From the sequence record NC_054924.1: 64,000 nt of DNA; one strand, 5' to 3'. Positions within the stretch are counted from its first letter, which is position 1. The number at the start of each line of letters is the position of its first letter. Under the pieces are notes generated by a model. That model was not told the origin of the DNA. It ran no database searches and worked only from the letters and a program-made list of their open reading frames with translations. Positions 7,164 to 10,522 of this stretch are shown here, piece by piece. A program made the position numbers and the translations under genes. Origin of the DNA: Escherichia phage vB_EcoM_Lutter.

Positions 7164-7199
7164 CTTATTTCCTGTTTTAATTTGTAGATTTAATATACT

Positions 7200-7207
7200 T
7201 ATTTATA
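7200..7207 (-). promoter_or_regulatory. Late promoter (TATAAATA) for 6690..7163
   Basis: Plus-strand tatttata, ~35 nt upstream of the ATG at 7163. Confidence 0.5.
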
Positions 7208-7213
7208 CTAAAA

Positions 7214-7237
7214 AGCCCCAACCTTTCGGCTGGGGCT
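7214..7237 (-). terminator. Intrinsic terminator (stem-loop plus U-run)
   Basis: agccccaacctttcggctggggct; minus-strand RNA is followed by UUUUU. Confidence 0.55.
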
Positions 7238-7242
7238 AAGCC

Positions 7243-7548
7243 TTGCGGCAACCTTGTCGGGGTTCCACCTGCTAAGGCAAGTGTTTGTACGAAACGCCGG
7301 GATTCGAACCCGGTTATTAAGCAGTTGACGCTACTCAATATTTTTAAAAGGCCATATCTCGACCATATCCGAACGTTCCGTCAAAAACGCTACTCGGCTT
7401 ACGGCAAAGATATTTCCTCGAATCGATAATTCTGTGCGCCGTTTCTGCTGTGATGTAAGGGGATATTAACAAATCGTAAAGATTTATTAAGACCAGTCCT
7501 TACTCAGGGAACATCAGTCCGACGTCTTGCCGGTAGCGACCCGGCTTC
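7243..7548 (-). ncRNA. Candidate small stable RNA(s) at the distal end of the tRNA cluster (tRNA-like T-arm, no canonical tRNA fold)
   Basis: About 300 nt without a credible ORF between the terminator and the next gene; minus strand has ccggguucgaaucccgg (T-arm-like); in T4 this region encodes stable RNAs C and D (recall). Confidence 0.3.
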
Positions 7549-7893
7549 TTATTTTGGCATATCATCAATTTGCTCTCGACGCCGACGCCATAGATTAATC
7601 GCTTCATTGGCACATTCTGCGTTTGGTATATGACGGCAGCAATATAATGATTCGCGTTTCTGGAACCGATGTTGCAACGGAATTTCGTTTAAAAGGTCTT
7701 TACGGTCAAAGTATTCAAAACTAGTTAACCCGGAACGGTTTTTAAGAAACTTCCAATATCCGAATTCATTTTGAAAATAGACATAATCAGCATGCTGATA
7801 CAGCGAATTAATTAACCTATCGGAAATAACAGTGTCATTGTGATTAAAATAGAATGTTAAATCATGAACTACTAAATAAACATTACCTTTCAT
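7549..7893 (-). CDS. Hypothetical protein
   Basis: 114 aa ORF with ATG start, between the tRNAs and the putative stable-RNA region. Confidence 0.5.
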   Translation of the reverse strand: MKGNVYLVVHDLTFYFNHNDTVISDRLINSLYQHADYVYFQNEFGYWKFLKNRSGLTSFEYFDRKDLLNEIPLQHRFQKRESLYCCRHIPNAECANEAINLWRRRREQIDDMPK

Positions 7894-7909
7894 ATTTTCC
7901 TCACTTAAT

Positions 7910-7985
7910 TGGTCGAGGCAGTAGGGATCGAACCTACGACCTAGGACTTAGAAGGTCCTTGCTCTTCCTTCTGAGCTATGCCTCG
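7910..7985 (-). tRNA. tRNA-Arg (anticodon UCU)
   Basis: Manual cloverleaf: acceptor cgaggca/tgcctcg, anticodon stem aggac/gtcct, loop cuUCUaa, T-loop ttcgatc, encoded CCA. Confidence 0.8.
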
Positions 7986-7989
7986 GATT

Positions 7990-8064
7990 TGGCGGACGTG
8001 ATAGGATTCGAACCTATAACCAATCGCTTAACAGGCGATCGCTCTGCCATTGAGCTACACATCC
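7990..8064 (-). tRNA. tRNA-Asn (anticodon GUU)
   Basis: Manual cloverleaf: acceptor ggatgtg/cacgtcc, anticodon stem atcgc/gcgat, loop cuGUUaa, encoded CCA. Confidence 0.7.
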
Positions 8065-8068
8065 AAAT

Positions 8069-8155
8069 TGGTGGGGAGTGATGGAGTCGAACCACCCGAG
8101 TCGCAATGACAATGGATTTACAGTCCACACCGCTACCTCTACGGGATAACTCCCC
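8069..8155 (-). tRNA. tRNA-Tyr (anticodon GUA), type II
   Basis: 87 nt; acceptor ggggagt/actcccc; anticodon loop cuGUAaa; long variable arm; encoded CCA. Confidence 0.65.
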
Positions 8156-8168
8156 TTAATTCTTAATT

Positions 8169-8243
8169 TGGTGGCCCTGGGTGGAATTGAACCACCATCT
8201 GGCGATTATGAGTCGCTTGCTTGAACCTTCCAGCTACAGGGCC
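8169..8243 (-). tRNA. tRNA with anticodon CAU (Met, or Ile if C34 is modified)
   Basis: Acceptor ggccctg/cagggcc; anticodon loop cuCAUaa; T-loop ttcaatt; encoded CCA. Confidence 0.65.
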
Positions 8244-8251
8244 AAATTTTC

Positions 8252-8734
8252 TTATTTTATGTAGTATTTATTTAAAAACTTTCTAGCTTGAGTATGGCTA
8301 ACATTTATAGCGTTTGCATAATTTTTAATAAAACCTCGTTCATCCATATTAAAATTTTCTAATATTTTTAATCGTCTAGTTATCTCATCTTGGCTTAAGG
8401 TACTTGCATTATTTTTAGAAATTTTTTCTAAAGACTGCACTGAGTGTTTTCGACCATTAAAATTAAAATTTTTAGATTTTGGAGGAAATCTATCATTTAG
8501 TCTCGCATCTTTTGTATTTTGATTATTAGTTGCGCAATATATGTTATTTAATGAGTATGGTCCTTTATCACCAAAACGACACATACAGTATTCATGACCC
8601 TTTCTTCCACGCTTATCATAATTTCCCGTTGATTTCCACCAATTCAACCACTCATCAAAAGTTAAATTCCATTCAATGTTTCTACGTATAGCAGAATTCC
8701 GCTGAGAAATATATTTTGCATAATCTTCTTTCAT
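8252..8734 (-). CDS. Hypothetical protein inside the tRNA cluster; possible degenerate homing-endonuclease-like protein with a C-terminal DNA-binding tail
   Basis: 160 aa from the ATG at 8734; RRNIEWNLTFDEW and GHEYCMCRFGDKGPYSLNN resemble HNH-family fragments; C-terminus SHTQARKFLNKYY resembles the C-terminus of the HNH protein at 9130-9738. Confidence 0.4.
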   Translation of the reverse strand: MKEDYAKYISQRNSAIRRNIEWNLTFDEWLNWWKSTGNYDKRGRKGHEYCMCRFGDKGPYSLNNIYCATNNQNTKDARLNDRFPPKSKNFNFNGRKHSVQSLEKISKNNASTLSQDEITRRLKILENFNMDERGFIKNYANAINVSHTQARKFLNKYYIK

Positions 8735-8781
8735 CACAAATTTCTCTACTTATTACATACACTAAGCTAAATCAGCAAAAC

Positions 8782-8871
8782 TGGCGGAGGCGATAGGATT
8801 TGAACCTATGAGTCGCCGGAGCGACTGCCGGTTTTCAAGACCGGTGCATTAAACCACTCTGCCACGCCTCC
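8782..8871 (-). tRNA. tRNA-Ser (anticodon UGA), type II
   Basis: 90 nt; acceptor ggaggcg/cgcctcc; anticodon stem ccggt/accgg, loop cuUGAaa; long variable arm. Confidence 0.8.
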
Positions 8872-8873
8872 AG

Positions 8874-8947
8874 TCTCCGCGGCAGGATTTGAACCTGCGA
8901 CATTCTGCTCCCAAAGCAGACGCTCTACCAAACTGAGCTACACGGAG
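8874..8947 (-). tRNA. tRNA-Pro (anticodon UGG); CCA not encoded
   Basis: Acceptor ctccgtg/cgcggag; anticodon stem tctgc/gcaga, loop uuUGGga; 2-nt spacer to tRNA-Ser (Pro-Ser dimeric precursor as in T4). Confidence 0.8.
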
Positions 8948-8957
8948 TAAATTAAAT

Positions 8958-9031
<74 letters not shown>

Positions 9032-9036
9032 AAATT

Positions 9037-9123
9037 TGGTGCGAGAAGTGGGACTCGAACCCACAAGGAAATCATTCCGCAGCATTTTAAGTGCTGTGCC
9101 TTTACCAATTTGACCATTCTCGC
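9037..9123 (-). tRNA. tRNA-Leu (anticodon UAA), type II
   Basis: 87 nt; acceptor gcgagaa/ttctcgc; anticodon stem cagca/tgctg, loop cuUAAaa; long variable arm. Confidence 0.8.
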
Positions 9124-9129
9124 GCTATA

Positions 9130-9738
9130 TTATTTATTACGTGAAAAAGACTGTTCTATCAATTCTGGACACTTTCGTTCTATCCATTTTCTAGCTTTTT
9201 GTGGGCTTATACCTATTATTTTAGCAGCTTTACTAACCCATCCAAATTTAGAATAATCGATTTTAACTAATTCTTCGTAAATTTCATCAGTTAAAATCTT
9301 TTCATTAATATTTACCAGTAAATGATATAATTTATTATCATTAGCAATTTTAATGAATCTTTTATAGTTTCCGCCTTTACTTAAACCTAATGAAGTAATT
9401 GCAGATGATATAGTAGCCGAATTTAATAGTGCGTTTAAAATTTCTTCATCACTAACATTATAACGCTTTTTATTATTTTTAATATTTTTACCAGCAAAAG
9501 TATCAGTTTGCGAATGGCAGTTTGGACATAATAATCTTAAATTTGATTTAAGATGATTTTTGTTATTTCCATCAATATGGTCTAATTGCAGAACAATATG
9601 CTTATTTTGCCATTTTGAAATTTTACAAATTGCACACTCATATGGAAAAATATTTTCTTTTATTATTTTGTCTTTCAGCTTTCCTGTACTAAAATTTGGA
9701 TGTTTTCCTTCAAAAATTTCAGCTAATTTAGTATCCAT
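9130..9738 (-). mobile_element. HNH-family homing endonuclease, free-standing, abutting tRNA-Leu
   Basis: CAICKISKW...HIVLQLDHIDGNNKNHLKSNLRLLCPNCH is a canonical HNH/zinc-finger motif; basic helix-turn-helix-like C-terminus; track start 9762 is TTG, start uncertain. Confidence 0.7.
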
Positions 9739-9848
9739 AATATGATTCCCAATTATTAACAAAGGCTCTCAAACAAGAACCCTTGATGATAGAGGGTATT
9801 AATCAGTGCGGTATGAGTTAATAATAACAAATAATTCTTAAAGCATAT

Positions 9849-10136
9849 TTACCATTTATGATAATACATATTTACGATGCATTCAAGACCCAAAGGATTC
9901 TTGAAAATATCATATTCAAGAGGACCTTTTTCTGTTTCAATAAAGAAATCAAAATTTACTGTATTAAATTTACGGTCTTCCTTTACTAATTTAACTTGTG
10001 AAGATGAACGGTCAATGTAAACCTTTTCAACTTCAAAATATGTTAAAATGCCATAATCATCAATCAAGGCTTTAGCCGCGTCTTGATCATATTTATATCC
10101 ATTTTCAATGGACGATACTTTCGCATAAAGAATCAT
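9849..10136 (-). CDS. Hypothetical protein
   Basis: ORF; track start 10142 is TTG, first ATG at 10136. Confidence 0.5.
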   Translation of the reverse strand: MILYAKVSSIENGYKYDQDAAKALIDDYGILTYFEVEKVYIDRSSSQVKLVKEDRKFNTVNFDFFIETEKGPLEYDIFKNPLGLECIVNMYYHKW

Positions 10137-10138
10137 TA

Positions 10139-10522
10139 TCAACCTTCATCAACAATAGTATGCGTATTGGCATTTACAATTTGCCACCAATCAAAGCGAT
10201 TAGAACCATAATCTGGTTTGTTTTCATTTTCTTTGATAATGTCACGGAGTTCATCTTCAGTGGCGGCTTTCGCGATTAAATCAGCATATCCACCACGAGG
10301 ATAATAATTATCACCTGCAAAAAGTAAAAAGTTTGGTTTAATGTTATTGAACTCTTCAAGAGTAATAACTGTTCCTGATGGTAGTTGAACAATCTCTACA
10401 TATTTATATCCCAATTTTTGAGCAGCATCTACTGCTTCAAGCAAAGTATCATGAGCCCATCCAATTTGACAACCTGGCTTTTCAGATGGATTAGCCTGAT
10501 AATCCGCATACACTTTATACAT
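10139..10522 (-). CDS. Hypothetical protein
   Basis: ORF; track start 10531 is GTG, first ATG at 10522. Confidence 0.5.
   Translation of the reverse strand: MYKVYADYQANPSEKPGCQIGWAHDTLLEAVDAAQKLGYKYVEIVQLPSGTVITLEEFNNIKPNFLLFAGDNYYPRGGYADLIAKAATEDELRDIIKENENKPDYGSNRFDWWQIVNANTHTIVDEG

Follow-up and report, generated by a model that had tools for sequence, protein, structure and literature searches.

A trna.1-type gene in the tRNA cluster of a T-even-like phage: a candidate homing endonuclease with a PacI-like, histidine-free head

Introduction

What is encoded by the open reading frame (ORF) that lies wedged between two tRNA genes of Escherichia phage vB_EcoM_Lutter? The 64,000 nucleotides (nt) of sequence record NC_054924.1 considered here (hereafter, the window) contain, within a cluster of tRNA genes, an ORF for a protein of 160 amino acids (aa), in which an earlier note, made from the sequence alone, had suspected either a homing endonuclease that is truncated at its N-terminus and retains DNA binding alone or a representative of a divergent family. 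The counterpart of this ORF in phage T2L, trna.1, has been published as an ORF of unknown function, which is lost when T4 SegB homes into T2L (PMC2330249).

The explanation that we favor, with moderate confidence, is that the trna.1-type gene encodes a free-standing homing endonuclease, in which a beta-beta-alpha head of the PacI type, free of both histidine and zinc, is joined to a tail of the Seg type. Below, we set out the evidence from the fold, the conserved residues, the tail and the distribution of the gene, and weigh the competing explanations alongside it.

A conserved, intact ORF within the tRNA cluster

The 160-aa ORF is indeed present, together with all the sequence strings previously quoted from it, running from an ATG at 8734 to a stop codon at 8252-8254. 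An alternative in-frame GTG at 8737 would yield 161 aa, and the residues of the protein are numbered from this GTG throughout. The ORF is surrounded by a cluster of 8 tRNA genes, all on the minus strand (ARAGORN, Rfam). Window region 7500-10200 has matches in 983 phage records, foremost Escherichia phage OE5505 (94.6%), and the window is a piece of a T2/T4-like phage genome of the genus Tequatrovirus. At the DNA level, the ORF is 96% identical to trna.1 of phage T2L (AJ880101) and is found at 96-99% identity in 24 phage records; the window copy is intact, as are those of OE5505 and 22 other records. Four other Straboviridae genera preserve the frame at 38-56% identity, and the protein matches phrog_16521 (function unknown; E = 5.7e-55); as judged by these comparisons, the ORF is more than a chance reading frame. 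Scans of the ORF against Pfam and NCBIfam returned nothing meaningful, the sole match being to DotZ, under its cut-off. Neither database yielded a match to HNH or GIY-YIG models, in line with the earlier remark that a full signature of either kind is missing.

A histidine-free head that resembles PacI

Sequence relatives of the trna.1-type protein have in common an N-terminal module of 80 residues (hereafter, the N-domain), with C-terminal parts that vary. A profile of the N-domain matched 7,189 cluster representatives at E <= 1e-3 and 5,162 at E <= 1e-10, the clusters being defined at 50% identity, and no Pfam or NCBIfam model covers the domain in the ORF or in 148 relatives, nor does any HNH model fall within it. 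The suggestion of a divergent family is thus borne out. No further copies of the N-domain were found within the window.

The competing suggestion, in which an HNH or GIY-YIG homing endonuclease lost its catalytic N-terminus and left the ORF as a decaying relic, could appeal to the lack of matches to HNH or GIY-YIG models, to a tail homologous to those of nearby GIY-YIG and HNH enzymes, and to the T2 allele, which is truly broken (see below). Nevertheless, we regard it as the least probable of the explanations considered. The window ORF is full length beside intact homologues at 38-56% identity, and residues 6-83 of its stop-to-stop frame align with positions 2-79 of the 80-position family profile (E = 1.8e-36), so that the first 80 residues cover the whole profile. 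Furthermore, the N-domain folds confidently in AlphaFold, and the sequence upstream is a tRNA-Thr remnant rather than a piece of an ORF from which a catalytic histidine might come. The full-length profile match refutes truncation for the window ORF; a product that is N-terminally truncated is a description that applies to T2.

Conservation was counted over 162 domain copies from the best 148 proteins among the family matches. Four residues, W30, W34, R54 and N65, never vary (162/162), and column 74 is reached by 153 copies, every one of which has an asparagine there (N74). Variation is rare at M52, D57, G59 and Y61, with D57 kept in 155 and Y61 in 156 copies. At the position of the catalytic histidine, all 162 copies carry an arginine (R54), and a general-base histidine was never seen; the cysteines of the family are not conserved either. 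Accordingly, of what had been described as a His/Cys/Asn cluster, GHEYCMCRFGDKGPYSLNN (residues 47-65), the histidine and cysteine do not hold up as conserved positions, whereas R54, D57, G59, Y61 and N65 do. The stretch RRNIEWNLTFDEW (residues 18-30), once likened to the tail of HNH modules, sits instead in the helical N-terminal portion of the domain.

The AlphaFold2 model has a predicted local distance difference test score (pLDDT) of 87 for the whole protein and of 94 for the N-domain, for which the predicted template modeling score (pTM) is 0.81. In the model, the N-domain consists of helix 2-18, helix 27-37, strand 50-54, a loop, strand 66-70 and helix 71-79, with R54 ending the first strand, Y61 located in the loop, N65 starting the second strand and N74 lying in the helix. 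As modeled, this order is the beta-beta-alpha arrangement of His-Me finger nucleases. A Foldseek search placed PacI first (probability 0.80, query TM-score 0.68, E = 0.68), and 10 of the 17 listed matches were HNH nucleases, including Gme HNH, colicins E7 and E9, and Cas9. Singly, the structural-match scores are modest, and the weight rests on the agreement of two methods.

PacI is an exception among His-Me finger nucleases in that it is devoid of the catalytic histidine, for which a loop tyrosine substitutes, and holds its metal on one Asp and one Asn (PMC5714182, PMC4081073). We checked the sequence of PacI (PDB 3ldy/3m7k; His-Me finger group 20, Jablonska et al. 2017) against the PDB and gathered 8 relatives for a profile. 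Comparison of the family profile with the PacI-family profile using hhalign gave a score of 28-29 (P = 1e-4 to 2e-4, probability 47-58%) over 67 columns, spanning family residues 8-74 and PacI residues 29-113, whereas the best of 200 column-shuffled controls scored 23.1. In this register, R43-G44 of the family correspond to R82-G83 of PacI, R54 to R93, Y61 to Y100, N65 to N104 and N74 to N113, and all these partners are invariant in the PacI family. With the single PacI sequence, the register was the same but not significant (E = 0.19), the comparison being informative only with the PacI-family profile; when two family profiles were run against PDB sequences with hmmsearch, only chance matches came back and PacI was missed.

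The heads of the two proteins thus have several features in common: an arginine at the position of the catalytic histidine, a conserved tyrosine in the loop between the strands, an asparagine that starts the second strand, a further aligned asparagine, the metal ligand of PacI, nine residues on in the helix, and a helical N-terminal part (PacI 29-58 versus family residues 8-37). Judging by the aligned residues, the trna.1-type family has the same His-less exception as PacI. The kinship with His-Me finger nucleases that had been raised as a test of the ORF holds for the beta-beta-alpha fold and for the best structural matches, PacI and HNH enzymes, but not for the general-base histidine, which is replaced by an invariant arginine. 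The two are nonetheless only 13-15% identical, and the invariant H42 of PacI aligns with a hydrophobic residue in the family. In addition, the trna.1-type protein has a long DNA-binding tail and a mobile-gene context, whereas PacI is a stand-alone dimeric restriction enzyme.

Tandem domain copies and partner domains

All single-domain proteins among the 148 members keep the R-D-Y-N-N set (R54, D57, Y61, N65 and N74). Two domain copies are present in 14 of the 148 best family matches (P0016-P0026, P0028, P0031 and P0034), one copy departing from the set in 10 of them. Departures occur solely in such two-copy proteins, where the other copy keeps the set; five of the ten departing copies are without D57, Y61 and N74 together, and the other five are without only one or two of these residues. 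Such a pairing would be expected of a pseudo-dimer in which one copy is active and the other structural, and it suggests that the domain functions in dimeric form.

Among the same 148 members, the N-domain is joined to NUMOD3 (12 proteins), the I-TevI DNA-binding domain (6), NUMOD1 (3), an I-HmuI NUMOD-like domain (1), AP2 (1) and various helix-turn-helix domains. As these partners are DNA-binding modules of homing endonucleases, the N-domain fills the slot usual for GIY-YIG or HNH heads. Both the upkeep of the R-D-Y-N-N set and this choice of partners speak for a working active site. Only one member carries a second nuclease domain. In this protein, P0111 (319 aa, metagenomic), the family domain and a NUMOD-like tail are accompanied by an Endonuclease VII domain of the HNH type.

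The main rival to a nuclease bears on the same observations: the head may be a catalytically dead His-Me finger that is kept as a sequence-specific DNA binder (cf. SMAD MH1), and the protein may have a regulatory role or shield the tRNA region; without its histidine, the head would then have ceased to be a nuclease. None of the 162 copies has the general-base histidine, and His-Me groups without His or Tyr are held to be inactive binders of DNA or substrate (PMC5714182). Moreover, tandem copies of the domain exist, one protein has it next to a true Endonuclease VII domain, and one database labels a member only as 'NUMOD3 domain-containing DNA-binding protein'. We consider such a derivative unlikely, albeit the most serious of the alternatives, given that the loop tyrosine is kept in 156 of 162 copies along with D57 and N74, all three of which are lost in five tandem second copies, and that a metal-ligand asparagine would be needless in a pure binding module. 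Similarly, another nuclease domain is found in 1 of 148 members, yet many have DNA-binding modules that usually go with catalytic heads, and the sporadic, insertion-like distribution described below suits a selfish gene better than a regulator.

A tail of the type found in neighboring endonucleases

Residues ~90-157 of the trna.1-type protein match the tail of RB68_140 (E = 1e-15), which consists of a Pfam NUMOD3 motif and a helix-turn-helix. RB68_140 is a 202-aa GIY-YIG homing endonuclease of phage RB68 (NC_027979; extract L005, 1252-1860), encoded between tRNA-Gly and tRNA-Ser, in the place taken by tRNA-Pro in other phages. The NUMOD3 and helix-turn-helix tails of the two proteins are homologous, whereas their heads are unrelated, being a GIY-YIG domain in RB68_140 and a beta-beta-alpha finger in the trna.1-type protein. 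Membership in the GIY-YIG (Seg) group was rejected, as the trna.1-type protein has no GIY-YIG match and the tail alone is common with RB68_140. The niche, on the other hand, is the same for SegB, RB68_140 and the trna.1-type gene: an ORF wedged between tRNA genes and replacing one of them.

The HNH protein encoded nearby (9130-9762, minus strand) matches phrog_16521 with its residues 84-196 (E = 2.2e-4); direct BLASTP between this protein and the trna.1-type protein found nothing significant. One tail type common to three heads in the gene cluster accounts for the likeness, pointed out earlier, of the C-terminus SHTQARKFLNKYY (residues 146-158) to the C-terminus of the HNH protein, SPQKARKWIERK, both being part of a common helix-turn-helix DNA-binding tail. 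With I-HmuI and F-TflIV (the neighbor at 9130-9762), the trna.1-type protein has in common a beta-beta-alpha-metal fold, a modular tail and a free-standing position in the tRNA cluster. In contrast to these HNH homing endonucleases, it is without the D-H catalytic pair and without an HNH match in Pfam, and hhalign of the family against the neighboring HNH protein detected no relationship in the head.

A Hef-like identity was also rejected, the hhalign probability with F-LimIII of LIMEstone1 being 0.3%; the domains of F-LimIII are of the DUF7487 and Vsr/DUF559 types. Finally, 'PacI-like' HNH endonucleases have been described as free-standing genes in lactococcal Skunavirus phages (2 of 268 genes, best HHpred match only; PMC12724721). 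This is the one previous naming of PacI-like phage endonucleases, which are likened to the trna.1-type family by description only.

Displacement of tRNA-Thr and sporadic distribution

A contiguous Met-Thr-Ser arrangement of tRNA genes is found in 482 phage records, as compared with the 24 that carry the ORF. In phage ACG-C40, tRNA-Met, tRNA-Thr and tRNA-Ser follow each other with spacers of 1-5 nt. Aligned with this arrangement, the window retains a 5' remnant of tRNA-Thr (Table 1), which past its first 16 nt is degenerate and runs into the first codons of the ORF; the degenerate stretch has a local score of 23, whereas 1,000 shuffles gave 14.1 +/- 2.6 and a fraction of 0.005 of them reached 23. 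Neither the T-arm nor the 3' acceptor strand is left. The gene took over most of tRNA-Thr, namely its 3' part, and left the 5' remnant behind.

Including the orthologues at 38-56% identity, all of which keep R-D-Y-N-N, the gene is present in Tequatrovirus, Karamvirus, Jiaodavirus, Gelderlandvirus and Biquartavirus, with different tRNA flanks in each genus: Leu/Thr in CkP1, Tyr/Lys in KpV477, Gln/Arg in S16 and Asn/Tyr in Aeromonas phage 31, the copy of which carries the annotation 'not conserved in 44RR'. In CkP1, KpV477 and S16, the 3' end of the annotated orthologue reaches 10-18 nt into the 5' end of the tRNA gene that follows (L006 1486-1980, L007 1492-1965 and L008 1411-1992, respectively), so that RNase P processing would cut the mRNA in or just ahead of the stop codon. 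A similar kind of control has been proposed for segB; in the window, the stop codon sits 8 nt ahead of tRNA-Met.

Two distant members of the family are encoded on the opposite strand, inside capsid/portal modules of uncultured phages, where no tRNA genes were called in the vicinity. In one of the two contigs, an HNH_3 gene is found on the same strand at a distance of one gene. Such locations speak against tRNA-specific biochemistry as the role of the whole family and bear on a further alternative, that the protein processes, repairs or cleaves tRNAs or their precursors. All five strabovirus orthologues are directly flanked by tRNA genes, with which cotranscription is presumed, as would be expected of a tRNA-acting protein. 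We nevertheless deem this function very unlikely, considering that, besides the distant members, the tail is of a DNA-binding type (NUMOD3 and helix-turn-helix), that the flanking tRNAs differ by genus and one tRNA gene is destroyed in the window, and that SegB makes tRNA-gene DNA a known homing target (PMC2330249).

The T2 allele is different from that of the window. In T2 isolates, two 2-bp deletions within the first 30 codons of trna.1 break the frame (T2L AJ880101, extract L002, 460-993; complete T2 genomes), which is why the annotated T2L trna.1 protein starts internally. Read from its sequence, the T2 trna.1 allele is a pseudogene or has an N-terminally truncated product.

Other features of the tRNA region

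The HNH gene at 9130-9762 (minus strand) matches phrog_14736 (E = 6e-124), and its counterpart in ACG-C40 is annotated as similar to F-TflIV of T5. It fills the exact tRNA-Gln slot of T2L and RB68: T2L bases 1-43 match window positions 9794-9752, and tRNA-Leu picks up again at 9123. No tRNA-Gln remnant was detectable beside this gene. The window also carries counterparts of two small stable RNAs of T2L, rnaC and rnaD, which are reported by no Rfam model (Table 1). The short ORFs at 7177-7338 and 7344-7472, which overlap these counterparts, are probably not genes. Like T2L, the window (at 7986-7989, compared with L001 1999-2188) is without the tRNA-His gene and the ~115-nt spacer between tRNA-Arg and tRNA-Asn, both of which are present in OE5505 and ACG-C40; the cluster thus differs in gene content here as well.

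Table 1. Positions of the trna.1-type gene, its predicted parts and nearby features in the window.
Feature	Position	Strand	Basis
trna.1-type coding sequence, intact	8252-8734	minus	ORF list; 483-nt coding sequence annotated in phage OE5505
N-terminal domain, putative catalytic head (residues 2-80)	8498-8734	minus	AlphaFold model; family profile
Beta-beta-alpha core with conserved residues (residues 50-79)	8501-8590	minus	AlphaFold strands and helix; conservation counts; hhalign
Codon of R54	8576-8578	minus	Read from sequence
Codon of D57	8567-8569	minus	Read from sequence
Codon of Y61	8555-8557	minus	Read from sequence
Codon of N65	8543-8545	minus	Read from sequence
Codon of N74	8516-8518	minus	Read from sequence
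NUMOD3-like motif, GRKHSVQSLEKISKNN (residues 93-108)	8414-8461	minus	Alignment with the Pfam NUMOD3 match (residues 134-148) of the RB68 GIY-YIG endonuclease
C-terminal helix-turn-helix, ending ...YANAINVSHTQARKFLNKYY (residues ~136-158)	8264-8332	minus	
5' tRNA-Thr remnant	8725-8776	minus	Alignment with Met-Thr-Ser of ACG-C40; 15/16 bases at 8761-8776
tRNA-Ser(UGA), upstream neighbor in the direction of transcription	8782-8871	minus	ARAGORN and Rfam
tRNA-Met(CAU), downstream neighbor, begins 8 nt past the ORF stop	8169-8243	minus	ARAGORN and Rfam
Counterpart of T2L rnaC (137/140 identical)	7286-7425	minus	
Diverged counterpart of T2L rnaD (94/121)	7434-7551	minus	

Discussion

The analysis establishes the fold, the family, the conserved residues, the common tail, the presence/absence pattern and the tRNA-Thr remnant. 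The cleavage, metal binding, role of the tyrosine, target site and homing that we infer for the trna.1-type protein would fit together as follows. A homing-endonuclease gene would have invaded the T-even tRNA cluster, replacing the 3' part of tRNA-Thr. The tail, with its NUMOD3 motif and helix-turn-helix, would anchor the protein on the DNA of the allele without the ORF, probably at a conserved tRNA-gene sequence. In the head, N74 and D57 would hold one divalent metal ion at the scissile phosphate, the loop tyrosine Y61 would act as general base or nucleophile, and R54 would occupy the position of the catalytic histidine of other HNH enzymes. The enzyme would cut the genome of a coinfecting phage with an intact tRNA-Thr, and repair off the ORF-bearing genome would copy the gene and its flanks into the cut genome. 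SegB recognizes a conserved tRNA-gene sequence and excludes the T2L region (PMC2330249), and, by analogy, the homing logic of the trna.1-type gene is expected to be the same. The gene is probably expressed, again on the model of segB, as part of the tRNA cluster transcript.

Several observations weigh against this explanation. The two Cys4 zinc sites of PacI (C63, C66, C109 and C112) have no counterpart in the trna.1-type family: the family has no equivalent of the 18-residue PacI insert with C63 and C66, and it carries T70 and Q73 where PacI has C109 and C112. With both the cysteines of the insert and their partners absent, there is no zinc site in the family. Likewise unmatched is the metal-binding D92 of PacI, which precedes R93, as position 53 of the family is Cys, Ala or Ser. 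The conserved aspartate of the family is instead D57, three residues past the arginine, which presumably stands in for D92 as metal ligand. Both the tandem copies and the fusion of P0111 to Endonuclease VII would also fit a DNA-binding module, and P0111, more than any other single case, hints that the family domain may at times serve as one. A promoter of its own and a translational hairpin at the start codon were sought for the trna.1-type gene and not found: promoter-like sites near the gene were no more frequent than in shuffles, and the fold at the start site had a z-score of +1.06. The search for a terminator gave nothing convincing. We found in the literature no cleavage, homing or marker-exclusion experiment for any family member; the sole published data concern T2L trna.1, which is frameshifted and was merely lost upon homing of SegB (PMC2330249).

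For the family as a whole, we put at about even odds the broader proposition that the N-domain constitutes a further catalytic class of homing endonuclease, a zinc- and His-free 'R-D-Y-N-N' beta-beta-alpha-metal nuclease that would, like PacI, cut by means of a loop tyrosine, spread across thousands of phage and bacterial clusters with NUMOD and helix-turn-helix tails, the strabovirus branch of which would home into tRNA genes. The family is large and uncurated, with more than 7,000 clusters at 50% identity, and its members are mostly 'hypothetical' in the records and databases checked.

For T-even phages, these results give trna.1 of T2, listed as an ORF of unknown function since 2008, a testable function, and its frameshift in T2 bears on how published crosses of T4 with T2L are interpreted. 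With at least 4 endonuclease genes that each displace one tRNA gene, namely SegB, the RB68-type GIY-YIG, the F-TflIV-like HNH and the trna.1-type gene, the T-even tRNA cluster has the look of a contested homing site. If active, the trna.1-type class could provide a compact new nuclease scaffold, and the tyrosine-based mechanism of PacI would reach beyond a rare restriction enzyme to widespread mobile nucleases.
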